Source: Patescibacteria group bacterium
Lineage (GTDB): Bacteria; Patescibacteriota; Microgenomatia; UBA1400; MFAQ01
Direction of reading: 5' to 3'
DNA: 64,000 nt
Assembly: GCA_943355005.1 (NCBI GenBank)
Contig: CALRDV010000005.1
Coordinates: 4,999 to 68,998 of the forward strand
Below are positions 141 through 12,005 of this stretch, piece by piece. The notes under the pieces are model-generated. The model was not told the origin of the DNA, ran no database searches, and was given only the letters and a program-made list of their open reading frames with translations. The position numbers and the translations under genes are program-made. Position 1 is the first letter of the stretch. Each line of letters begins with the position of its first letter.

Positions 141-1394
141 ATGTTTAAAACAACTTTAAGAATAATAATCCTTTCCCTATTTGCTCTTTCTGCTGCTTCC
201 CTAGCCAAAAATATTTTCGCTCAGGCCAAGCCGGAAAATTTAATCCCCGATTCTTACATTGTTGTATTCAAAGATAGCGTCGGTAATCCAAGTGAAAAAG
301 CAAATGCCATGGGCAAGCTCCACGGTTTTTCAGTGGACCATTCCTTCTCATCAGCCATCAAAGGTTTCTCTGCTGTCATTCCGGCAGCCAGATTGGCTCA
401 GATTAAGCAAGATTCAGAAGTTCAATTTATTACCCAAGATAGAGTAGTTACCACTCAAGCAGGACAAGTAACTACTCAAGCAGTCCAGCAAGTCCCAACC
501 GGAGTAAATCGAATGGGAGTTCCAAGCTCAGGTAATACGGGTAGTGGAATCGGTGTAGCAGTCATTGATACCGGCATCGCACTTTCACATCCGGATCTTC
601 AGGCAAATATTGGCGGTAACTATTCCTGTGTCAAAGGAAAACGGACAGGGGACGATGATAACGGTCATGGTTCCCACGTAGCCGGTACTATCGCAGCAGT
701 AAACAATGGAGTTGGTGTCGTCGGAGTGGCATCCAAAGTTAAACTCTACGCTGTCAAAGTTCTTAACTCGCAAGGTTCGGGTTCCTGGTCTTCCATTATC
801 TGCGGTATCGACTGGGTTACCAAAAATGCTAATGTTCTAAATATCAAAGTTGCCAACATGAGTTTAGGTGGTAGTGGTTCAAGCGACAACAACTGCGGCA
901 ACACAAATGGAGACGCTTTACATAAAGCTATTTGTAAATCTAGGGATGCCGGAGTGACTTACATCGTAGCTGCAGGCAATAATGGCGCCGATGCTTCTAC
1001 TTTTTCACCCGCCTCTTACAATGACGCCGTTATTACAGTTTCCGCCTTGGCAGATAGTGACGGTAAGTCCGGAGGTTTGGGTGCCACAACTTCTTATGGA
1101 GCAGATGATACATTTGCCACTTTTAGTAATTACGGCAATGTCGTTGATTTAGGCGCTCCAGGGGTAAATATTTATTCTACTTGGATAGGCAATGGCTACA
1201 ATACTATAAGTGGTACTAGTATGGCGACTCCTCACGTCTCCGGCTCAGCTGCTTTGTATATAGCCAAAAATCCTTCATCTTCATGGACGCAAGTTAGAGA
1301 AGGGCTAAAAGCGCTAGGTGAGCTCAAAAATGCCGGTCACACCGATCCTTCGAATCTACATCCCGAGCCAATTGTCCTCACGAATACGCTGTAA
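141..1394 (+). CDS. Secreted subtilisin-like serine protease (peptidase S8) with an N-terminal signal peptide and a propeptide-like region
   Basis: The catalytic triad motifs are present: VAVIDTGI (Asp), HGSHVAGTIAA (His) and GTSMATPHVSG (Ser). The N-terminus is hydrophobic, consistent with a signal peptide. Confidence 0.9.
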   Translation: MFKTTLRIIILSLFALSAASLAKNIFAQAKPENLIPDSYIVVFKDSVGNPSEKANAMGKLHGFSVDHSFSSAIKGFSAVIPAARLAQIKQDSEVQFITQDRVVTTQAGQVTTQAVQQVPTGVNRMGVPSSGNTGSGIGVAVIDTGIALSHPDLQANIGGNYSCVKGKRTGDDDNGHGSHVAGTIAAVNNGVGVVGVASKVKLYAVKVLNSQGSGSWSSIICGIDWVTKNANVLNIKVANMSLGGSGSSDNNCGNTNGDALHKAICKSRDAGVTYIVAAGNNGADASTFSPASYNDAVITVSALADSDGKSGGLGATTSYGADDTFATFSNYGNVVDLGAPGVNIYSTWIGNGYNTISGTSMATPHVSGSAALYIAKNPSSSWTQVREGLKALGELKNAGHTDPSNLHPEPIVLTNTL

Positions 1395-1645: not shown

Positions 1646-2176
1646 ATGAAGAAAATAATATTAAGCGTTCTCGCAATCGTTTTGACTCTCGGTGTCGTTG
1701 GTGGTTCAGCATATGCATTATTTAGCTCTACAGCTACAGTTCAAGGTATTGCAATTAGTACCGGTAATGCAGGTCTAAAAATCTGGGATGGTGACTCCTA
1801 TGAAACCACCTGGACATCTACAGATGCGTTCAACGGTATGTATCCAGGAGAGAGTAGAACCACGACCTGGTACCTAAGAAACGATAGTACATCGGCCATT
1901 AGTTTAGATGTAACAGGGCAATTGATGTCAGCTGGTGGTGATTGGGCTGAGTTACAAGTTATTAAAATGAAAGCCGATGGTAATTCATTAGCTCCAGCTC
2001 CAGAAGGACCTCTCACAGACTGGAATTCTACCCCTGTCTCTTTGGGAAATATCCTTCAGAACACAACCGCAACATATCTCGTAACATTTACTTTACCAAG
2101 CGCCTCAGGAAATGAAGTGGCTGGAAAGTCCTTAAACAATGTAACGTTTAACTTTGTAGGAACAGAAAAACTATAG
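1646..2176 (+). CDS. Small secreted protein with a SipW-cognate-type (TasA/camelysin-like) signal peptide
   Basis: The N-terminus reads MKKIILSVLAIVLTLGVVGGSAYALFSSTATVQG, which resembles the AYFSDT-type SipW-cognate signal class. It lies immediately upstream of a SipW-type signal peptidase gene. Confidence 0.55.
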   Translation: MKKIILSVLAIVLTLGVVGGSAYALFSSTATVQGIAISTGNAGLKIWDGDSYETTWTSTDAFNGMYPGESRTTTWYLRNDSTSAISLDVTGQLMSAGGDWAELQVIKMKADGNSLAPAPEGPLTDWNSTPVSLGNILQNTTATYLVTFTLPSASGNEVAGKSLNNVTFNFVGTEKL

Positions 2177-2225: not shown

Positions 2226-3395
2226 ATGCTTAACCAAAAACTAAAACCAATCTTAAAATTTTTTGAATGGCTAATTTTCTCAGCCCTTATTTTTGTTGTT
2301 TTTATTATTCTCTCTCCACTTTTCCATCTAAGAGGACTACCTTCCACATTTATCGTAGCTACCGGCTCCATGGAGCCATTAATCAAAATAGGTTCGATTG
2401 CGCTTACACAAGAAATAGATCCTAAATCGGTTAAGGTTGGCGACATCATCGCTTTCACTTCGCCAAGCGATCCAAAACAAACCATTCTTCATCGGGTAAA
2501 CAGCATCTCATCTGTTGATCCATTAACGTTTAAAACCAAAGGTGACAATAATAAATCAATAGATAATTGGGATGTCCGAGATTCCGGTATCAAAGGCAAA
2601 TTTAGCTTCGCTATTCCATATCTTGGTCACGCCGGCGCCTTTATTCGCAAGCCTTTGGGATTTAGTATCGTCATTGGCATTCCGGCAGTACTCTTTATCC
2701 TTCTTCAGCTTTTAATCATCAAAAAAGCGATTGCTGAAGAGGTTGATCGTAAAGTTGCTAAGGCACTTGGCTCTCATACACTTCCTGTTATCATTGCCTT
2801 TTTTATATCACTCCTTGCTCTGTCTAGAGTGCCACTAGCATTGGCATATTTTTCTGACACAGCAACTATTTCGGGACTAAGTCTGTCGGTCGCAAATTTC
2901 TCCTCCGATGACGATGATGACGACGACAAACACTGCCCACCGGCCAACGACAAGGGAAACACGAATGACAAAGGGAATGGACATGATAATAACTGCGACG
3001 GCGAGAAAGATACCGGTAACAATAAGGATAAAGATAAAGAAAATGATAATGATGATGAAAAGGAAGATGAAGAGGTAAGCAATTCTCATCATCCAAAATT
3101 AGAAACTCATCTCGATTCAGAACGCCACTATTTCTCCTTCAGTCTTACTGATGTCGAAGATTTTTACGAGATTTCGTACCGAGTAAATTACGACACTGAA
3201 AATTCCTCGAGAGAGTTTGAAGGTCGGGAAGATATGGACAGAGAGCTGGAATATAGAAAACTTGATATCTTGCTTGGTTCCAAATCTGCCGGCGGAGGTG
3301 CTGTCTTTGACGAAGGCGTCAAAAATATCAAAATCTCCATTCGTCTCACCCGTCCAGACGGCACATTCTTCGACCTCGAAGATAATATGGAATAG
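2226..3395 (+). CDS. sipW: Signal peptidase I of the SipW/archaeal-ER (S26B) type, fused in frame to a C-terminal extension that carries a second SipW-cognate-like signal, an Asp-rich tract and a globular tail
   Basis: The N-terminal TM helix plus VATGSMEP (catalytic Ser box) and the HRV region are typical of SipW. After about 190 aa the sequence continues ...LPVIIAFFISLLALSRVPLALAYFSDTATISG...DDDDDDDK..., with no in-frame start codon separating the two parts. Confidence 0.65.
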   Translation: MLNQKLKPILKFFEWLIFSALIFVVFIILSPLFHLRGLPSTFIVATGSMEPLIKIGSIALTQEIDPKSVKVGDIIAFTSPSDPKQTILHRVNSISSVDPLTFKTKGDNNKSIDNWDVRDSGIKGKFSFAIPYLGHAGAFIRKPLGFSIVIGIPAVLFILLQLLIIKKAIAEEVDRKVAKALGSHTLPVIIAFFISLLALSRVPLALAYFSDTATISGLSLSVANFSSDDDDDDDKHCPPANDKGNTNDKGNGHDNNCDGEKDTGNNKDKDKENDNDDEKEDEEVSNSHHPKLETHLDSERHYFSFSLTDVEDFYEISYRVNYDTENSSREFEGREDMDRELEYRKLDILLGSKSAGGGAVFDEGVKNIKISIRLTRPDGTFFDLEDNME

Positions 3396-3661: not shown

Positions 3662-4393
3662 ATGAAAAAGAAGTTCCTGCCACTTCTTCTCGTAGGGGTC
3701 TCCGTTATTATTTTCCCGTTTCTTTTCAGCCAGCCAGTCCACGCCGACGAAGACAGTCCAAGTACTGTAACCTTCTGTCTCAAGCACAATGGCTCAGTCT
3801 ACACCGCCGGTCGTGGACAGAAAAAGTCATTCTGCAGAGACGATGATAGATATATTAGTTTCAAACTGAGTATTTTAGACAATTTGGGCACCGTTGGCCC
3901 ACAAGGGCCCATTGGTCCCGCCGGCTCTCAGGGTGTTCAAGGAATTCAAGGTGAGCAAGGAATACAGGGAATCCCCGGCACAGGCAGTGGAGATTCCATT
4001 CCCGGCCCCAAAGGCGACCAGGGAATCCAAGGAATTCAAGGTGAAGTTGGACCCAAAGGTGACACCGGACTTCAAGGCATACAGGGACCTGTGGGTCCTG
4101 CCGGCCAAGACGGCACCTCAGGCTCAGGTTCCGGCATCTCCGGCTGGGAGAAAGTCATGGCAGCCACCACTTCCGCAGGCACGGACCAAACCTTCAGCGC
4201 CACCTGTACCTCAGGCAAGAAAGTCATTGGTGGAGGCTACGCAACTTCAAACGCCGTAACCTATTTAACCTATTACGCATTGGAAAATTACCCAAGCACC
4301 GACAATTCTTGGACCGCCACTGTACACAGAGCTAATTCTGGAGGTGCCACTTGGACTCTCAATGTCTACGCTCTCTGCGTCTCCGGACTATAA
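3662..4393 (+). CDS. Secreted collagen-like triple-helix repeat protein with a C-terminal globular domain
   Basis: A signal peptide (MKKKFLPLLLVGVSVIIFPFLFS) is followed by about 35 G-x-y triplets (GPQGPIGPAGSQGVQGIQGEQGIQGIPG...GPVGPAGQDG) and then a non-repetitive tail. Confidence 0.7.
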   Translation: MKKKFLPLLLVGVSVIIFPFLFSQPVHADEDSPSTVTFCLKHNGSVYTAGRGQKKSFCRDDDRYISFKLSILDNLGTVGPQGPIGPAGSQGVQGIQGEQGIQGIPGTGSGDSIPGPKGDQGIQGIQGEVGPKGDTGLQGIQGPVGPAGQDGTSGSGSGISGWEKVMAATTSAGTDQTFSATCTSGKKVIGGGYATSNAVTYLTYYALENYPSTDNSWTATVHRANSGGATWTLNVYALCVSGL

Positions 4394-4561: not shown

Positions 4562-6163
4562 ATGCTTAATTCAGACATAGATGTCAAAAAAAGGATACTC
4601 GAGAACGACGCGCTAGTCGAGAAGAAACTATCCGAAGACGAGCTTTTTGTGGAAATTGCCAAAGATTTTGGCTTGCCATTCACGAAAATTAACGCCTCAA
4701 ATATTGAGAAACAGGTCCTAAATCTATTGCCGGAAAAGATTGCCAGATCAAATAAAACAATAGCTTTCGGGAGAGACGAAAAAGTCGTCAAAATAGCCGT
4801 TGTTGATCAGCCAAATCAGGATTTACTTGATATGATTTCGAGGAAGACCAATCAGCCTATAAAGGTCTATTTCACTTCACCGGAATACCTAAAGAAAGCC
4901 TTACTTTTGTATCGTTTATCTCTTCAGGGGGCTTTCGATAAAATTCTTAGCGACATCTCGGATATTACCTTGGAAACAGCTCCTATTAGGAAGATAGTTG
5001 ATCTTTTGATTGACTATGCATATCAAGATGGAGCTTCGGATATCCATATCGAGCCGGAAGAAAAAAAGTTTAAGGTCCGTTTCAGAATTGATGGAATTCT
5101 GCACGACGTCCTGACACTACCAAGAGATCTACTGGATCGCGTGGTCACTCGCGTAAAAGTACTTTCACGTCTCAGGACGGATGAGCACCTTAGTCCTCAG
5201 GATGGTAAATTCCGTTTCTTTATCGAAGATGAGAATCTGGATATCCGCGTTTCTATTGTTCCCATTGCCGATGGTGAGAAAATCGTTCTCCGATTGCTTA
5301 CTTCTAAGTCTCGTGAGTACTCACTGGATAATCTGGGACTCAGCGAAACGGATTTGAAAACCATCCGCAAAGCTCTGGACAAGTCCTACGGCATGATTCT
5401 TTCCACTGGTCCCACCGGTTCAGGCAAAACCACTACTATCTACGCCTTGATAAAAATTCTCAATACGAGAGACAGAAATATCACTACTATCGAAGACCCT
5501 ATCGAATATCGTATTGAGGGTATAAACCAAATTCAGGTAAATACCAAAACCAATCTAACTTTCGCTAATGGTTTGGGCTCCATCCTTCGCCAAGATCCAA
5601 ACATTATTTTTGTCGGCGAGGTACGCGATAGCGAAACAGCTGCTATTGCGGTGAACGCTGCTCTTACAGGTCACTTAGTTTTCTCCACTTTACACACTTC
5701 GGACGCAGTCGGAGCGGTTCCCAGACTTTTGGATATGGGTATAGAACCATTTTTACTAACTTCTACGGTAAATGTCATCATTGCTCAGCGTCTTTTACGT
5801 CGAGTGTGTGTAGACTGCAAATATTCTTACACGGTCACCCGAAAAGAGTTGGCCAAAAATATTCCTTTGGATTCCATTAAACGGGACTTTGGCAGTTCCT
5901 CCGAAATTAAATTTTACAAAGGCAAGGGTTGTCCCACTTGTCACCATACCGGCTATCTCGGTCGAGCCGGCATTGTCGAAGTTCTCACCATTTCCAAGGC
6001 TATCAGAAAGTTAATTATCAGTGGAGGTGATTCGGATCAAATCTTGGAAGCTGCTCAGAAAGAGGGGATGATTACCATGTTTGATGATGGATTGCGCAAA
6101 GCTCACCAAGGCGTCACCACTATCGATGAAGTTCTCCGGGTTACCAAAGTTGAAATATTATGA
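4562..6163 (+). CDS. pilB: Type IV pilus assembly ATPase (PilB/GspE family)
   Basis: Walker A GPTGSGKTTT, the GspE signature region, the C-terminal tetracysteine CxxC...CPTCHH, and an N-terminal GSPII-like domain are all present. Confidence 0.9.
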   Translation: MLNSDIDVKKRILENDALVEKKLSEDELFVEIAKDFGLPFTKINASNIEKQVLNLLPEKIARSNKTIAFGRDEKVVKIAVVDQPNQDLLDMISRKTNQPIKVYFTSPEYLKKALLLYRLSLQGAFDKILSDISDITLETAPIRKIVDLLIDYAYQDGASDIHIEPEEKKFKVRFRIDGILHDVLTLPRDLLDRVVTRVKVLSRLRTDEHLSPQDGKFRFFIEDENLDIRVSIVPIADGEKIVLRLLTSKSREYSLDNLGLSETDLKTIRKALDKSYGMILSTGPTGSGKTTTIYALIKILNTRDRNITTIEDPIEYRIEGINQIQVNTKTNLTFANGLGSILRQDPNIIFVGEVRDSETAAIAVNAALTGHLVFSTLHTSDAVGAVPRLLDMGIEPFLLTSTVNVIIAQRLLRRVCVDCKYSYTVTRKELAKNIPLDSIKRDFGSSSEIKFYKGKGCPTCHHTGYLGRAGIVEVLTISKAIRKLIISGGDSDQILEAAQKEGMITMFDDGLRKAHQGVTTIDEVLRVTKVEIL

Positions 6164-7224
6164 AAAAAACCAAAGATCTAAGCAAGATCAGAATCAGTAA
6201 TAACGACAAACTAAATTTTTTGTCCGGGTTGGGCACCATGTTAAGAGCCGGCTTATCCGTCCTGGAAGTTGTCAGTTCACTCGCTGAGGACTCACGTGGA
6301 GATCTAAAAATCTTTTTCGAAGTTCTGTATGAAGATTTAACCCAAGGTAAAACCATCTCTTCATCATTAGCCAAATTTCCAAGGTCCTTTGACAAAGTCA
6401 CCATCAATGTCCTAAAGTCAGCTGAAGAAAGTGGTACTTTGGAGTCGACTCTCAAGGACGTCGAAACCACCATTCAGAAAACAATTAAATTCAATGACAA
6501 GATTCGTTCCGCCCTTCTTTACCCACTAGTCGTTTCTGTTGTGTTTATTTTCATCATTGTCGGTATCTTAATTTTCGTCATTCCCCGCGTGTCTACAGTC
6601 TTTACTTCCTTAAATATCGACCTCCCTTTACCCACCAAAATTCTTTTGTATATTTCGAATATCCTGACACAGCAAACCATTTGGGTAGTCGGTTTCTTCA
6701 GTGCTCTTATCCTAGGAATTATTATTTTGTATATCAAGAAAAGAGATTGGCTAATAAACCGCTTCTTGTCTCTACCTTTTATTTCTACTATAGCGGCGGA
6801 GATAGATTTGACCCGCTTTTCTCATAGCCTCTCATTACTTCTGGATGCCGGAATTCCAATTACTTCGGCTCTCGCCCTTACTCAAGAAGTCATCGTGAAA
6901 GAGGAAATTAGAAATGTCATTGCTGAAACCAGAGATATGGTTGGCTCCGGCAAAAAGATTTCTGAAAGTTTTAAGAAATACAAAAAAATCATTCCTAAAT
7001 TGGTTATCAAAATCATAGAAGCGGGTGAACATTCAGGTTCGCTTAGCGCTTCCATGCAATACATTTCAGATTATTTGGAATACCAGGTAGAGAAGAAACT
7101 CTTCTCCGCTACGACGCTTCTTGAGCCCTTTATGCTCGTGACTATTGGCTTTGTCGTGGGTGGCATGATGCTATCTATCATCAGCCCGATTTATTCTTTA
7201 ATTGGCCAAATTGGACCTCGATAA
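6160..7224 (+). CDS. pilC: Type IV pilus inner-membrane platform protein (PilC/GspF family)
   Basis: It has a GspF-like domain architecture with three or more TM helices and overlaps the pilB stop codon, indicating translational coupling. Confidence 0.75.
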   Translation: MKKTKDLSKIRISNNDKLNFLSGLGTMLRAGLSVLEVVSSLAEDSRGDLKIFFEVLYEDLTQGKTISSSLAKFPRSFDKVTINVLKSAEESGTLESTLKDVETTIQKTIKFNDKIRSALLYPLVVSVVFIFIIVGILIFVIPRVSTVFTSLNIDLPLPTKILLYISNILTQQTIWVVGFFSALILGIIILYIKKRDWLINRFLSLPFISTIAAEIDLTRFSHSLSLLLDAGIPITSALALTQEVIVKEEIRNVIAETRDMVGSGKKISESFKKYKKIIPKLVIKIIEAGEHSGSLSASMQYISDYLEYQVEKKLFSATTLLEPFMLVTIGFVVGGMMLSIISPIYSLIGQIGPR

Positions 7225-7691
7225 TGAAAGGCCACACCTTATTAGAGATACTTATTGTCCTCGGATTATTTACTGTTATTTTTACGGCGACATCTCTAAA
7301 TCTCTTAGGTGCTAGGTCAAAAACATCACTCGGAACTTCAGTCGACGTTCTCTTGGCCGATCTCCGCGCTCAGCAGACCAAAGCCATGAGTGGCGATACC
7401 GGAGGAGGAGGTACCAATGTCAACTTCGGAATCCATTTTCTAAGTAATTCATATGTTCTTTTCAAAAACACCTATTCTGCCTCAGATCCCTACAATTATT
7501 CGGTGAATTTAGACGATGTCAAGATTGATACTACTTTTTCCGGCTCAGAAATTATCTTTCTTAAAGGTAGTGGAGAAGTTTCGGGATACAACCCTGTCGC
7601 CAACACCATCCGTTTAACCAGCCTTAGTAGTTCCGGTAGTCCAAAGATTATCACCATTAATCGTTTCGGTGTCATTATCTCCGTCAACTAA
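7224..7691 (+). CDS. Pseudopilin or minor pilin with a prepilin-type N-terminal cleavage/methylation motif
   Basis: The N-terminus reads MKGHTLLEILIVLGLFTVIF, which matches the G-(F/H)TLLE class III signal. Confidence 0.7.
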   Translation: MKGHTLLEILIVLGLFTVIFTATSLNLLGARSKTSLGTSVDVLLADLRAQQTKAMSGDTGGGGTNVNFGIHFLSNSYVLFKNTYSASDPYNYSVNLDDVKIDTTFSGSEIIFLKGSGEVSGYNPVANTIRLTSLSSSGSPKIITINRFGVIISVN

Positions 7692-7692
7692 C

Positions 7693-9531
7693 ATGAAATT
7701 ATTCAATAAAAATCATGGTTTCTCCCTCGTCGAACTCCTCATCGCCATGGGTCTCTTGACGATTTTCATCCCCGCTCTAGTCAGTGGCCTCTCCGCCGCC
7801 AGATCAGGTAAAGTTCAGCAAGAACAAAGACTAAGCGCCATGTCCTATCTCAAAGAAGCGGAGGAAGCAGCTAGGGCAGTAAGAAATAATGATTGGGCAA
7901 ATGTCAAAACAGCGGGGACATACTACCCATCCATTTCAGGAAACACTTGGATACTAAATTCCGGCACTCAAAATATTAGCGGATTTACCAGATCAATTAT
8001 TATCAGTGATGTTTCCCGTGACTCTATCTCCGGTAATATTTCTTCGACCGGGACAGTTCCGGATCCCTCAGTCAAAAAAGTCGACATTTCGGTTTCGTGG
8101 ACCACGCCTTTTTATTCGCATGTGGACTCCACCTTTTATGTGAGCCGATATTTATCAAATACTCCACTTGCCGGCTCCGGAACTATTCAGCCTTTTTCCG
8201 GAAATGGTAATTGGTGTACTCCTTCACTGTCCATTACAAACGTAGATTTATCAGGTCAAGGTGTCCCAAACGCTGTATCCGCGATTTCCGGTCAAGTATT
8301 TGCGGCCACCGGAGCGAACGCTTCCGGAGTCTCTTTTGCAGATGTATTACTCACCGATCCGGCCTATCCTTCACCCCCGGTCTCAACCCTAAACGGTACA
8401 TTCAATGGCTTCAAAACCAATGGCATTTTTGGTGATAGTAGTTACGCATATATCACGACCGATACGAATTCCAAAGAAGTTGTCATTATCGATTTGGCAC
8501 ACAAGGACATCAGTAACAAATTTCTTTTGGCCGGCGTTTTTGACGCTCCTGGGAATACCAGTGCCAAGGGCATCTTTGTAACCGCGACCTACGGATATAT
8601 GACTACGGGAAGCAAGATGTTCAACTTTAATAAAGTAGGTTCAAGTCTTCCCTTGGATAATAACGGAGTCGCGCTCGATGGACTCGGTCAGAGGATTAGT
8701 GTGGTTGGGAACTACGCCTATGTTGCTACAGATTCAACCGGAAACCAGTTAAACATCATCGATATCAGCAATCCGTCGGATCTTAAGAAAGTCGATACCG
8801 TTCATGTCGATGGAAAAGCCGGAAAAGATGTCTTCATTAATACCGCCGGAACTCGAGCATATTTGGTAACTGCCTCATCTGCTTCTCAGCGGGAATTCTT
8901 CATTATTAATATCGACAAAACCAGTGCCAACTACAAACAAATAATTAGCTCTTACGACACAAGCGGTATGAATCCTACAGGGGTTTCCGTTGTTACACCA
9001 AAGAAAGGTATTATCGTCGGTATCGGTGGACTTGAATACCAGGTAATCGATTTAAGCGACGAAACCAATATTCCTTCCACGCCATGTGGAACTCTAAATA
9101 TTGATTCTGGTATTAACGGTGTTTCTTCCATATTGACGACCAGCACTCCTCCAAGAGCCTATTCATATATCATCACCAGCGTCCACTCGAAAGAACTTCA
9201 AATCATTGAAGGGGGAAGTGGAGGGGGAGGTGGCACAGGAATGTTCGAATCAACCACTTTCGACGCCGGTCACGACGTCGCCTTTAACTACTTCACTGCG
9301 ACTGCGGATCCAAATTTGACCTACAAATTCTCTATCAAACATGGCATAAGTGGCAGCTGTGCAGGAGTCACTTTCTCCGACAGTGATTACAATTTACTTC
9401 CCATAGGTAGTCTTCCTTTAACTACGATAGGAGCAGGCTATACCAATCCGGGTCAGTGTATGCGCTATCGGGTCACTAATTCCGCCTCCTCCGCAGTCAG
9501 TTATTCTCTAACTATCAATTACTCACCATGA
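7693..9531 (+). CDS. Giant pilin-like protein (about 610 aa) with a prepilin N-terminus
   Basis: The N-terminus MKLFNKNHGFSLVELLIAMGLLTIFIP matches the G-FSLVE motif. A large S/T/G-rich extracellular region contains a GGSGGGGGTG tract. The upstream extension of the ORF to 7669 is probably not translated. Confidence 0.65.
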   Translation: MKLFNKNHGFSLVELLIAMGLLTIFIPALVSGLSAARSGKVQQEQRLSAMSYLKEAEEAARAVRNNDWANVKTAGTYYPSISGNTWILNSGTQNISGFTRSIIISDVSRDSISGNISSTGTVPDPSVKKVDISVSWTTPFYSHVDSTFYVSRYLSNTPLAGSGTIQPFSGNGNWCTPSLSITNVDLSGQGVPNAVSAISGQVFAATGANASGVSFADVLLTDPAYPSPPVSTLNGTFNGFKTNGIFGDSSYAYITTDTNSKEVVIIDLAHKDISNKFLLAGVFDAPGNTSAKGIFVTATYGYMTTGSKMFNFNKVGSSLPLDNNGVALDGLGQRISVVGNYAYVATDSTGNQLNIIDISNPSDLKKVDTVHVDGKAGKDVFINTAGTRAYLVTASSASQREFFIINIDKTSANYKQIISSYDTSGMNPTGVSVVTPKKGIIVGIGGLEYQVIDLSDETNIPSTPCGTLNIDSGINGVSSILTTSTPPRAYSYIITSVHSKELQIIEGGSGGGGGTGMFESTTFDAGHDVAFNYFTATADPNLTYKFSIKHGISGSCAGVTFSDSDYNLLPIGSLPLTTIGAGYTNPGQCMRYRVTNSASSAVSYSLTINYSP

Positions 9532-10031
9532 AAATAAATTCTAAAAATCATCGTGGTTTGCCTCGCCATCAGGCGGGATTTTCGATTTTGGAACTTCTGA
9601 TTTACATGGGAGTATCCGCTTTTTTACTTGGTTCATTGACTCAGATATTTGTACTAATCAGTAGGCTTAGATTAGACACTCAAGCCTCTTCAGAGCTCCA
9701 GCAAGATGGTATGTTCCTGTTATCCAGGATGAGTTATGATTTGGCCCGCTCAGGTACCATCACTACACCTGCTCTTGGCTCACAAGGAGCCATCCTACAG
9801 ACAGATATGATTAAGTATTCCCTGGACGCTAACAATCACATTCAAATAACTGATTTGTCCGGCTCAGATATGATTTCCGGTTATGACACTACGGTTTCGG
9901 GTCTAAACTTCTTGCACCTTAAGAGTGGCAGTAAAGATAACGTCCAAGTTTCTTTTACTCTTACCAGCAAAGTGGTCAAGGCCGGAGGGTCGCAGACTAA
10001 ACAATTTATTACAACTATTGGTACAAGGTAA
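9528..10031 (+). CDS. Pseudopilin with a prepilin-type N-terminus
   Basis: The N-terminus reads ...HQAGFSILELLIYMGVSAFLLGSL, which matches the G-FSILE motif. Confidence 0.65.
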   Translation: MKINSKNHRGLPRHQAGFSILELLIYMGVSAFLLGSLTQIFVLISRLRLDTQASSELQQDGMFLLSRMSYDLARSGTITTPALGSQGAILQTDMIKYSLDANNHIQITDLSGSDMISGYDTTVSGLNFLHLKSGSKDNVQVSFTLTSKVVKAGGSQTKQFITTIGTR

Positions 10032-10032
10032 T

Positions 10033-10419
10033 ATGAAAAGGTCAACTCAAAAAGGAAACGTCTTAATTACTCTGATAATTTTTATGTTGATTTCTACCAT
10101 AGTTATCTCAGCGGCGGTTGCTATGATAATTACCAATACCGGCGCAATATCCGGTATCGAGCAAGGCCAGATGGCTTACCAAGCAGCCGAAAGTGGAGTG
10201 GAAGAAGCTGTAATTCAGCTATTAAGAAACCCCAATTTCTCAGGCACTGTCAGCAATATTTCTACCGGACTTTCTAAATTCACCTATACTGTCAGTGTAT
10301 CTTCGCCCAAAACCATTGATTCATATGGCTCATATTTAGGCTTCAAAAGGCATATCTATGTCACCACCTCGTATAATTCAGGACAGTTAGTGGTCAATCC
10401 TTGGCAAGAATCTTTTTAA
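10033..10419 (+). CDS. Minor pilin-like (PilX-like) protein
   Basis: The start was chosen at MKRSTQKGNVLITLIIFMLISTIVISAAV, which directly abuts the previous stop codon. It has a hydrophobic N-terminal helix but no canonical G-F-xLxE motif. Confidence 0.4.
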   Translation: MKRSTQKGNVLITLIIFMLISTIVISAAVAMIITNTGAISGIEQGQMAYQAAESGVEEAVIQLLRNPNFSGTVSNISTGLSKFTYTVSVSSPKTIDSYGSYLGFKRHIYVTTSYNSGQLVVNPWQESF

Positions 10420-10432
10420 TTACAAAAAAACC

Positions 10433-11443
10433 ATGCCCAAAAAAAGAAACTCCATCATTAAAATAGAAGGTGATAGATTAATCTTCGAAAATTCGGATTT
10501 ATCCAAGTCTCTCAAATTTAATTATCCTGCGGATACAGTTAGAGATTTAGAAATACTTGATGCCGAGAAGTTGGAAGAGGGGATTCAAACTTTCATCACC
10601 AAGAATGAAATTTCTGCCGGTTCTCTGCTCTTGGTACTTTCCAAAAATATTACCTTCCAAAAATCAATTTCTTCTTCAAACATAGAACAAGAAAGAACAG
10701 CTTTCTTGGACAGTATACCTTTCGAAACCATCTCTTCCAAAATTTACGGGAAGAAGGATAGTCAGGTAATTGTCGCTACCAATCGAGATCTTGTTCAGAA
10801 ATTCCAATCAATATTTGTTCACCTAGGTTTTCAGGTTGAGGGTGTCGTTCCTGAAGAATTATTACCGGAAAATTACTCGGATCTGTACCTAAAAAAATCT
10901 ACATCCTATTCTCATCTCAGTATGGCAGGTAACTCCGGCTACAAAGAAACCAAAATCAATAAAATCGCCAAGAAAGAGATAGAAGCCAGCAAAAATCTGC
11001 GCTTACTCCTTACCCTCTTTGGATTTTCTTTCCTCGTCCTAGGTGGCGCCTACTACTACTCCCACCGAGAGTACGATTCGGCAAAAGTCTCAGAGGTTGT
11101 CATTCCCGACCTGATCGGGAATCCATCCGGAATACCTACAAACACATTATCCGACCCTTCCACCTTATCGGTCAAGATTTTATATCGTCCACAAGAGGAA
11201 TTATCAGCCAAGGAGTTGCAAAGTATTTTATGGTCAAGTGGTTTCAAGAATACCGATTTAGTTGCCACCACTTCCGCTGGCCTGAGCACAAATCTCTCTT
11301 TGTCGCCGAACCTTCCTCCAGACCTAATTCAAAAGATTCAAGGAGAACTCTCCAAAATCGACAAAAACTACACTGTTGACTCACTAGTTTCGGAAAATTC
11401 GGAAGTAACGATTTTACTTGCTAAATCAAGCAAAAAGCGATAA
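10433..11443 (+). CDS. Hypothetical pilus-assembly membrane protein (PilM/PilN-like by position)
   Basis: It has a single central TM helix (LRLLLTLFGFSFLVLGGAYYY) and sits between pseudopilin genes and the major pilin gene. I recognised no diagnostic motifs. Confidence 0.35.
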   Translation: MPKKRNSIIKIEGDRLIFENSDLSKSLKFNYPADTVRDLEILDAEKLEEGIQTFITKNEISAGSLLLVLSKNITFQKSISSSNIEQERTAFLDSIPFETISSKIYGKKDSQVIVATNRDLVQKFQSIFVHLGFQVEGVVPEELLPENYSDLYLKKSTSYSHLSMAGNSGYKETKINKIAKKEIEASKNLRLLLTLFGFSFLVLGGAYYYSHREYDSAKVSEVVIPDLIGNPSGIPTNTLSDPSTLSVKILYRPQEELSAKELQSILWSSGFKNTDLVATTSAGLSTNLSLSPNLPPDLIQKIQGELSKIDKNYTVDSLVSENSEVTILLAKSSKKR

Positions 11444-11490
11444 TCCTAAATTTCACTATCAAAGTACATCAAAACATATCGGCAAAACTA

Positions 11491-11519
11491 TTGACATCTA
11501 TAGCTATAAGGTGTTTAAT
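11491..11519 (+). promoter_or_regulatory. Sigma70-like promoter for the major pilin gene
   Basis: TTGACA (11491-11496), a 17-bp spacer and TTTAAT (11514-11519) lie about 30 bp upstream of the pilin start codon. Confidence 0.45.
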
Positions 11520-11549
11520 CAGGGCATTAATAATAATTAATGCAAAGTT

Positions 11550-12005
11550 ATGGCCACCAAAAATAATAACCAAAAAGGTTTCACTCTCATCGAGCTTCTC
11601 GTCGTCATGGGAATTCTCGCCGTACTATTAACCGCCGTTTTGATGGCTATAAACCCATCCAGACAATTCGCTCAAGCCAGAGATTCTCAGCGCAGAAATG
11701 ATGTCTTAGCTGTACTAGATGCCGTCCAGCAAAGTATGGCCGACAACAAAGGTGTTCTTCCTGGCAGTATCACAGCCACCCCGACCGAAATTAAGACCGG
11801 TGGAATTGACCTCTGTAGCGAACTTATGCCGAAGTACATCTCCATTCTCCCTTCAGATCCTTCCTTAAATACTAGTCTTACTGTATGTCCAGCCTCTCCG
11901 GCCACCTACGCTACCAACTACTATATTTCTAAGGACTCTGATGGTCGCGTAACCGTCACTGCTAACGGAAAAGAAATTGCCACCTCAATTTCCGTCACCC
12001 GCTAA
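11550..12005 (+). CDS. pilA: Type IV major pilin (PilA-like)
   Basis: The N-terminus MATKNNNQKGFTLIELLVVMGILAVLLTAV is a canonical G-FTLIELL prepilin peptidase site. The gene is 151 aa and is followed by a strong terminator. Confidence 0.8.
   Translation: MATKNNNQKGFTLIELLVVMGILAVLLTAVLMAINPSRQFAQARDSQRRNDVLAVLDAVQQSMADNKGVLPGSITATPTEIKTGGIDLCSELMPKYISILPSDPSLNTSLTVCPASPATYATNYYISKDSDGRVTVTANGKEIATSISVTR

Follow-up and report, generated by a model that had tools for sequence, protein, structure and literature searches.

The stretch of DNA considered here (the window) is 64,000 nucleotides (nt) from a Patescibacteria group bacterium. It encodes a signal peptidase of the SipW type that continues, in the same reading frame, into what appears to be a substrate of its own class. 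The open reading frame (ORF) at 2226..3395 on the + strand is uninterrupted and encodes 389 amino acids (aa) plus stop, and the public gene call on the source metagenome contig (202 kb) is identical. A separate gene, 50 bp 5′ of the fusion ORF, encodes a small secreted protein with a similar N terminus. A first-pass annotation of the window had read the pair as a peptidase with a substrate in cis and a cognate protein next door, and the parts of that reading open to computation held: an active-looking peptidase, an internal signal peptide with a TasA-type motif, and an adjacent cognate protein. We conclude that the fusion is almost certainly genuine and conserved. We further consider it probable that it represents a natural translational fusion of a SipW-type (S26B) peptidase to its own substrate, cleaved in cis or in trans. 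The predicted features of the pair are as follows.

1646..2176, + strand: TasA/camelysin-like secreted protein of 176 aa, putative major fiber subunit.
1646-1717, + strand: signal peptide of that protein (residues 1-24), predicted cleavage SAYA/LFSSTATVQGIAISTGNAGL.
2226..3395, + strand: whole fusion ORF, 389 aa, homologues continuous through the junction.
2262..2330, + strand: first transmembrane helix (TM1), the N-terminal anchor of the peptidase (residues 13-35; hydropathy and charge count).
2331..2660, + strand: extracytoplasmic catalytic domain of a SipW/SEC11-type signal peptidase I (SPase I) (residues 36-145; TIGR02228 and SEC11A/C alignment), with catalytic-residue codons for S48 at nt 2367-2369 (GSMEP), H89 at 2490-2492 (HR), and D107 at 2544-2546 (KGDNN), and with D113.
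2661..2723, + strand: second transmembrane helix (TM2; residues 146-166; hydropathy), the C-terminal helix typical of the SipW type, returning the chain to the cytoplasm.
2724..2777, + strand: cytoplasmic loop KAIAEEVDRKVAKALGSH (residues 167-184; alignment), equivalent to the n-region of an internal signal peptide.
2778..2846, + strand: core of the internal signal peptide, with an h-region of 16 aa (185-200) and a c-region (201-207, RVPLALA), from the statistics of 66 fusions.
2847..2906, + strand: TasA-type mature N-terminal strand motif YFSDTATISGLSLSVANFSS (residues 208-227; hhalign and family consensus), candidate donor strand.
2907..3095, + strand: low-complexity spacer rich in Asp, Lys, and Asn (residues 228-290; sequence), with two Cys and several His.
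3096..3392, + strand: conserved C-terminal beta-sandwich of ~99 aa (residues 291-389; AlphaFold2 [AF2] model and homologues).

The N-terminal half resembles the signal peptidase of the endoplasmic reticulum (ER). Residues 17-161 match TIGR02228 (sigpep_I_arch, the ER/archaeal-type SPase I) with 94.6 bits against a cut-off of 51.85, and Pfam Peptidase_S26 (PF10502) is matched with 27.6 bits against a threshold of 22.9. Moreover, a family profile of the fusion and 21 homologues aligned with the PDB entries of human SEC11A and SEC11C at E values of 1e-11 to 2e-12, such that S48, H89, D107, and D113 lie opposite SEC11A S56, H96, D116, and D122. The enzyme has a Ser-His pair, not a Ser-Lys pair, plus conserved Asp residues. 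As all four residues are invariant in the 22-sequence homologue alignment and align with the catalytic residues of SEC11A, the peptidase looks catalytically competent, and the earlier assignment of the N-terminal ~190 aa to the SipW type with S26B catalytic residues stands. Membrane helices are predicted by hydropathy to flank the catalytic domain on both sides, and stand-alone relatives of the peptidase (170-230 aa) stop soon after the TM2-equivalent helix. The Bacillus SipW equivalog NF046067 was not reached (83.4 bits against a cut-off of 190); by profile scores, the enzyme is SipW-like in type and no orthologue of Bacillus SipW.

The polypeptide does not stop after TM2, and the protein that follows is here called X. 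Hydropathy places three hydrophobic segments in the chain, at residues ~13-35, ~146-166, and 185-200. The stretch ending in ALAYFSDTAT that the first-pass annotation counted as the second hydrophobic segment is indeed present, but it is the third. The same annotation had stated that no in-frame ATG, GTG, or TTG separates the two parts. A GTG (residue 202) and a TTG (residue 206) do in fact occur in frame, but both fall within the c-region, downstream of the hydrophobic core, and so neither could start a protein that bears a signal peptide.

A continuous frame in one contig might be an artifact, in which a frameshift or a lost stop joined sipW to a downstream gene. Short homopolymers near the junction (A6 at ~2717 and T6 at ~2796) are compatible with such an error, as is the existence of an unfused, overlapping-gene arrangement in one relative. 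The fusion recurs, however. A first homologue search returned ~28 proteins of 258-642 aa, from Candidatus Shapirobacteria and other uncultured bacteria, that were continuous through the junction. Each proceeds from the linker KKAIAEEV.RKV at the start of the loop through a variable hydrophobic segment to A-K-A/[LS]-[FY]-S-D-[TS]-V-x-V-S-G-I-[ST]-[IL]-S, after which come variable passengers (Big_13, lamin-tail) and then the same C-terminal domain. Many 391-aa matches in that search were rejected as polytopic membrane proteins with a C-terminal S26 domain, which is another architecture.

The part of the protein after TM2 was also used in a HMMER scan of 1.84 billion cluster representatives (50% identity) at E<=1e-3, and 706 representatives matched. 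Among the 150 best listed, a ~95-aa domain was C-terminal in all 150 and the N-terminal peptidase domain was present in 64. The others among the 150 were either fragments or proteins that stand alone; in many of them, an ordinary N-terminal signal peptide leads into the motif TN[SA]/[YF]FSD...GN.F[ST][AT]G. Finally, a peptidase-anchored scan of one genome per GTDB species gave 80 loci, and the gene was fused in 27 of them, with products of 343-1,171 aa. The fused loci came from Shapirobacteria, Gottesmanbacteria, Roizmanbacteria, Microgenomates, and "Patescibacteria group" metagenome-assembled genomes (MAGs), mostly Microgenomates-type members of the candidate phyla radiation (CPR), and some MAG records in the scan bear implausible automatic taxon labels. 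The other loci carried stand-alone SipW-type genes of the 170-230 aa class. In a rough neighbor-joining tree of the peptidase domains, nearly all CPR fusions formed one clade, and one fusion (L068) fell beside an unfused relative.

More than 60 independent 50%-identity representatives and 27 of 80 loci, drawn from different studies, share this continuous architecture; the linker is conserved in frame across the junction, and no alternative start lies upstream of the hydrophobic core. Conservation of the fusion across homologues excludes an assembly or sequencing frameshift or a lost stop, and the probability that we would leave to an artifact is negligible. The first-pass annotation was correct that a single frame spans both parts but had regarded the arrangement as a nonstandard one-off; it is instead a recurrent architecture that is publicly annotated merely as "signal peptidase I." Haloarchaeal SipW-like proteins (320-590 aa) were rejected as relatives of the fusion, having neither the junction motif nor the C-terminal domain. 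In nine of them (L044, L054, L055, L064, L074, L075, L079, L080, and L083), the extension is an acidic linker, two hydrophobic helices, and an acidic tail.

The unfused relative is L076, a locus in a Patescibacteria MAG. There, a tasA-like gene (193 aa, ...ATQA/LFSDSE...) is followed by sipW (193 aa, ending soon after TM2) and then by a gene for a 437-aa protein that overlaps the sipW stop by 11 nt, begins MALNYMQLLLKSLSLRPLQSLKLLCLVALTFLVQVPATNS/YFSSDAAIVSNQIQTGNW..., and has the same domain at its C terminus. A fourth gene encodes an fn3-plus-multi-TM protein. Judging from the sequence, a single stop or frame change would interconvert the arrangement in L076 and the fusion. The gene upstream is also conserved. 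In the window and in the four other fused loci retrieved by protein identity (L001, L002, L004, and L005; 5/5 in all), a 176-194-aa protein with AYA/[LA]FS[SD]T and a C-terminal F.F.GTQ/E is encoded 37-50 bp upstream of the fusion, and a tasA-like gene lies 45-70 bp upstream in nearly all 27 fused loci of the scan (hidden Markov model [HMM] E values of 1e-31 to 1e-70).

How the two halves are joined is informative. In the window, the predicted SPase I cleavage falls at A207/Y208 (between nt 2846 and 2847; ALA207/YFSDTATISG), and the sequence past the site reads Y208FSDTATISGLSLSVANFSS, to be compared with a family consensus of [LYS][FY]SD[TS]V.V.SGI[ST][IL]S.ADF. Across 66 fusion proteins, the −1 position (the equivalent of A207) is Ala in 62 and Ser in 4, the −3 position is A, I, V, or T in 64, and the +2 position is aromatic in 61 (F, Y, or W). 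Between TM2 and the h-region runs a loop of 12-41 aa with a median of 8 K+R versus 5 D+E (4 K/R in residues 167-184 of the window protein), and the median lengths of the h-region and c-region are 16 aa and 5 aa. By these statistics, the junction has the n-h-c build of an SPase I substrate and obeys the (−3,−1) rule. Moreover, no part of the junction is better conserved than the residues at the cleavage site. Because the sequence of the h-region is not conserved among homologues while the −1, −3, and +2 positions are kept, selection appears to act on the cleavage site.

The junction also resembles the N terminus of the upstream protein. Both have an n-h-c signal peptide, small residues at −1 and −3, x-[FY]-[ST]-[DS], and then a strand with ...G.[ST]. 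(ALA/YFSDTATISG in the fusion and AYA/LFSSTATVQG in the upstream protein). When the junction profile was aligned with the upstream-protein family by hhalign, 20 columns were matched with an E value of 3.8e-7 and a probability of 93%. When a junction-only HMM was run against all six-frame ORFs of >=60 aa in the window, exactly two matched, namely, the fusion at residues 204-226 and the upstream protein at residues 21-40 (E, 2e-7). The mirroring noticed in the first-pass annotation is therefore beyond chance, and by these alignments the two segments are homologous. The TasA chain in PDB entry 8aur begins at A28, which gives a cleavage at TWA/AFND, and the sites of the fusion and of the upstream protein are in register with it. 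A passage in one report holds that an aromatic P2′ residue makes TasA a poor substrate of LepB and a substrate of SipW instead (PMC10269814).

Conservation of the site bears on whether the third segment is cut at all. The fusion might be real but uncleaved, with the third segment a permanent helix and the C-terminal module tethered as an anchor or assembly platform; for example, strand 208-227 might insert into a TasA-like subunit's groove, keeping the fiber at the peptidase. The topology permits a tether, and TapA of B. subtilis is reported to colocalize with the membrane (PMC10151520). In a model for C. perfringens, an uncleaved signal peptide holds BsaA oligomers at the membrane before SipW acts (PMC11580942). 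Moreover, the role of anchor is vacant in the window. In related loci, a gene for an fn3-plus-TM protein follows the fusion or the free-standing gene for X (L001, 7719..8927; L002, 7713..8954; L076, 4762..6123), and its product, a candidate fiber anchor, combines an ordinary signal peptide with a weakly TasA-like N-terminal domain, fn3, and a Cys-rich multihelix C-terminal membrane region. No counterpart of this gene, which is found in Shapirobacteria loci and L076, was detected in the 64-kb window, where the sole weak match was the TasA-like gene itself. A simple anchor, however, needs no cleavage site, whereas the fusions keep Ala or Ser at −1 in 66/66 and a small or aliphatic residue at −3 around a variable core. 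A short h-region with a polar c-region after it is what cleaved signal peptides, rather than stable anchors, typically show; the protein's own active site lies beside a consensus site of its own substrate class; and in free-standing homologues the same segment serves as the N-terminal signal peptide. We consider a permanent tether unlikely and regard cleavage at A207/Y208 by the SipW domain as reasonably likely.

What the cleavage would release is a spacer and a folded domain, much as the first-pass annotation had outlined. In an AF2 model built with an 80-sequence alignment, residues 291-389 form a nine-stranded, all-beta domain with predicted local distance difference test (pLDDT) values of 94-98. 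The spacer (residues 228-290) has no secondary structure (pLDDT, 51-70), and strand 208-227 is not packed on the C-terminal domain in the monomer (pLDDT, 54-61). Most homologues have immunoglobulin (Ig)-like domains (Big_13, LTD, and fn3-like) in place of the spacer. No Pfam or NCBIfam family matches residues 291-389, and a Foldseek search of the C-terminal model against the PDB returned only generic Ig-like/beta-sandwich folds (best E, 4.5e-3; template-modeling score [TM-score], <=0.36 on the query). Kinship of residues 208-389 with TapA/YqxM was not found either, there being no NCBIfam or Pfam match and no TapA among the Foldseek PDB matches.

Two details of this region vary among relatives. 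The C-terminal family has a nearly invariant Cys pair, LGTCSxGGxCV, which the window copy has lost (LGSKSAGGGAV). The pair is likewise lost (LGSKSAGGGAV or LGSESSGGGIAF) in P0003, P0089, P0108, P0112, P0117, and P0121, and by this alignment the window protein and those six form a disulfide-less subfamily of an unannotated domain. Asp, Lys, Asn, and His abound in the spacer, which also contains two Cys residues (DDDDDDDKHCPP...GHDNNCDGE), and a comparable spacer rich in His, Asp, and Cys is present in P0002, the closest homologue. The composition suggests that the spacer could bind metal ions. Ca2+ drives assembly of the related AbpX and cannula fibers.

The C-terminal extension might instead be an accessory or regulatory module of the peptidase, with the TasA-like motif a pseudosubstrate that occupies or gates the active site. 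Parallels would be the noncatalytic subunits of the eukaryotic signal peptidase complex and DUF5305, which is sometimes fused to SPase I. Such a SPase I-DUF5305 fusion has been described (bioRxiv 10.64898/2026.01.04.697558), and the C-terminal domain found here is tied to SipW-type systems, both fused and neighboring. The DUF5305 architecture differs, however, in having two TM helices and a cytoplasmic domain. Moreover, the passengers of the fusions are highly variable and adhesin-like (Big_13, LTD, and fn3-like, in proteins of up to ~1,170 aa), which fits exported surface proteins rather than subunits of an enzyme, and roughly one in two family members stands alone behind an ordinary N-terminal signal peptide. 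An accessory module seems quite improbable.

How closely the upstream protein is related to TasA is less clear-cut. The protein begins MKKIILSVLAIVLTLGVVGGSAYA/LFSSTATVQGIAISTGNAGL and ends ...VTFNFVGTEKL, and an invariant A-Y-A-x-F and a C-terminal F.F.GTQ are common to 14 of its homologues. It misses the gathering score of PF12389 (14.4 versus 22.5 bits, over the N-terminal 45 residues only) and the cut-off of TIGR04088 (15.0 versus 19 bits). Within the family, PF12389 is matched weakly by 8 of 16 members (best E, 1.4e-3), and TIGR04088 is matched at E<=1 by 11 of 16 (best E, 4e-4). When the family was aligned with B. subtilis TasA by hhalign, 72 columns were matched with an E value of 1.4e-4 and a probability of 53%, with SAYA/LF placed over TWA/AF. 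The AF2 model of the protein (pLDDT, 74.8) has its highest PDB TM-score, 0.44, with the AbpA bundling pilin 7ueg (Foldseek E, 0.018), and TasA is not among the top 50 Foldseek PDB matches. A PDB sequence search with the protein and its family profile gave no meaningful match. We conclude that the upstream protein is weakly TasA/camelysin-like by sequence. The proposal that a separate protein of the SipW-cognate type is encoded next door is upheld; its predicted cleavage motif is AYA/LFSSTATVQG.

Here, we propose a path by which the fusion could be made and processed. The N terminus would remain inside, where residues 1-12, with 3 Lys and zero acidic residues before TM1, are predicted to be cytoplasmic; TM1 would place the catalytic domain outside, and TM2 would bring the chain back in, leaving the basic loop inside. 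The third short hydrophobic segment would then serve as an internal signal peptide that exports the remaining chain and presents ALA207/Y208 at the outer face of the membrane, where the active site of SipW/SEC11-type enzymes works. The peptidase domain of the same or a neighboring molecule would cut after A207. A three-helix peptidase would remain in the membrane, and a 182-aa protein with the new N terminus YFSDTATISGLSLSV..., a TasA-type strand, would be released. Cleavage at A207/Y208 would yield the semitryptic peptide YFSDTATISGLSLSVANFSSDDDDDDDK. This peptidase would likewise process the upstream TasA-like protein (SAYA/LFSSTATVQG...).

ER-type signal peptidases cut after internal signal sequences in polyproteins, and in the polyproteins of flaviviruses and hepaciviruses, the ER signal peptidase (SEC11) cleaves after internal hydrophobic segments that follow a membrane span. 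Given the cleavage of viral polyproteins by SEC11, cutting at an internal site would be mechanistically ordinary for this class of enzyme. The viral systems differ in that enzyme and substrate come from separate genes and different organisms, whereas here both are in one chain and the chain is bacterial.

Once released, X would donate its N-terminal strand to the first TasA-like subunit, as a nucleator or tip, and the complete C-terminal beta-sandwich (plus Ig-like domains in relatives) would be the distal or adhesive part. Fusion would ensure that peptidase and nucleator are synthesized 1:1 and colocalized. A free N-terminal strand and a self-folding beta-sandwich are features of TapA, and for that reason X, once released, probably serves a TasA-like fiber as minor subunit, nucleator, or tip; a similar, nucleator-like role has been proposed for archaeal AbpB (PMC9245690). 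A role specifically like that of TapA in a fiber is a tentative suggestion that we draw by analogy. Cleavage, action in cis or in trans, the donor-strand function, and the fiber itself are matters that we infer.

Several points weigh against this interpretation. We infer the membrane topology from hydropathy and charge (the positive-inside rule) alone. The C-terminal domain has no detectable relation to TapA, or to solved structures beyond a generic beta-sandwich, and the membership of the upstream protein in the TasA superfamily depends on weak scores (the hhalign probability of 53% and the Foldseek TM-score of 0.44). The fused segment does not reach TIGR04088 (cognate_SipW), the family named in the first-pass annotation, scoring 12.1 bits over residues 206-217 and falling, like the upstream protein, below the 19-bit cut-off. 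Relatives come near the threshold at best (17.6 bits for P0097 and 18.5 for P0151, both internal, and 18.5 for P0231, N-terminal). Finally, conservation at −1 and −3 could be partly inherited from an ancestral free-standing preprotein rather than kept for cleavage.

Some known systems come close to this pair. In the operon tapA-sipW-tasA of B. subtilis, a dedicated ER-type signal peptidase is likewise accompanied by a TasA-like major subunit and by one more secreted protein, and both secreted proteins share a special type of signal peptide with an aromatic P2′. TapA resembles X in having a free N-terminal strand plus a complete beta-sandwich, a resemblance that is functional and architectural only. 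TapA donates its N terminus to TasA, its own Ig fold being already complete, and tapA and sipW are overlapping genes with similarly low coexpression, which has been read as a hint of association (PMC10151520). The window differs in that the peptidase and the minor protein are one polypeptide with an internal signal peptide, in that the gene order is tasA-like and then sipW::X, and in that the mature TasA-like subunit has 152 aa, versus 234 aa for B. subtilis TasA. The AbpA/AbpB, AbpX, and Tafi loci and sipW-bsaA-bsaB-bsaC of C. perfringens are also alike, each combining a major pilin, an SPase I, and minor, tip, or anchor components, and AbpA is the best structural match of the upstream protein. 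In the literature searched, these archaeal and clostridial TasA-superfamily loci differ in that the peptidase is not described as fused to a fiber component. No published fusion of an SPase I to its substrate was found in that literature, the coverage of which was incomplete, and the sole fusion mentioned was SPase I-DUF5305.

A stronger version may be imagined, in which the protein is an obligate self-priming assembly machine. Cleavage would occur in cis, the signal peptide would be kept as a third helix, the donor strand of the nucleator would be set free at the active site by this initial cut, and successive TasA-like subunits would be captured and processed at the active site, making the peptidase the minimal "usher" platform of a chaperone-free donor-strand fiber. 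We think such a machine rather unlikely. If true, it would be the first signal peptidase that is its own substrate and would provide direct evolutionary, Rosetta-stone evidence for the physical coupling of SipW and TapA suspected in Bacillus.

The surroundings of the pair contain repeats and other secreted or surface-related genes. The 9-mer GTCATTGCG occurs 14 times in the window, always on the + strand, where shuffled sequence gives an expectation of 0.2. The 9-mer forms the left arm of a small palindromic repeat located between genes, sometimes in tandem, of the form GTCATTGCGAG-(8-25 nt hairpin)-(G/A)AGCAATC(T/C) or GTGGCAATCC. Two copies flank the pair: the first lies 92 nt upstream of 1646 and the second 19 nt past the stop at 3395, and the matching right arm of the second does not appear until ~3548. 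A second repeat, GTCATTCCGGGCTCGACCCGGAATCC, lies at ~14480 and ~56970. Genes like those of type IV pili or type II secretion lie directly downstream (4562..12005). The neighboring features are listed below.

1554, 3414, 12139, 14409, 14499, 14540, 27430, 47053, 51985, 52484, 56268, 56323, 56377, and 56991, + strand: copies of GTCATTGCG.
4562..6163: PilB-like ATPase.
6160..7224: PilC-like platform protein.
11550..12005: one of several pseudopilin-like ORFs, with an N_methyl match in public calls.

In C. perfringens, type IV pilus genes have been linked to how SipW-dependent matrix proteins are secreted (PMC11580942). A functional connection with the pilus genes of the window was considered and rejected, as synteny did not support it: no T2SSE or T2SSF was found in four related loci with 5- to 6-kb flanks. 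Between the fusion and the pilus genes lies 3662..4393, whose 243-aa product is secreted: an ordinary signal peptide precedes ~80 residues of collagen-like G-x-y repeats, and the chain ends in a globular domain. The product has a weak YjdH match in public calls, and the gene is not at that position in related loci. On the other side, 250 bp upstream of the tasA-like gene, 141..1394 encodes a subtilase (Peptidase_S8; E, 8e-49) that is secreted and carries an I9 propeptide. L004 has a large S8/PA14 protein near its fusion gene, and the subtilase parallel may be coincidence.

Dedicated SipW-type peptidases and TasA-like donor-strand fibers are now recognized in Bacillota, in archaea, and in Patescibacteria alike. 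A fusion that joins the peptidase to a TapA-like component and is conserved would provide a Rosetta-stone argument that processing and nucleation are coupled. The architecture is widespread among CPR bacteria and is unusual for a signal peptidase of any kind. Because the system is one gene, action of an SPase I in cis versus in trans could be tested with one construct, and the enzyme, if the proposal is true, would be an unusual signal peptidase with an internal, self-directed cleavage site. The analysis also defines an unannotated C-terminal domain of ~95 aa with 706 cluster representatives. Finally, many CPR proteins called "signal peptidase I" (350-1,170 aa) are probably peptidase-adhesin polyproteins, which bears on the surface structures of episymbiotic, uncultured bacteria.

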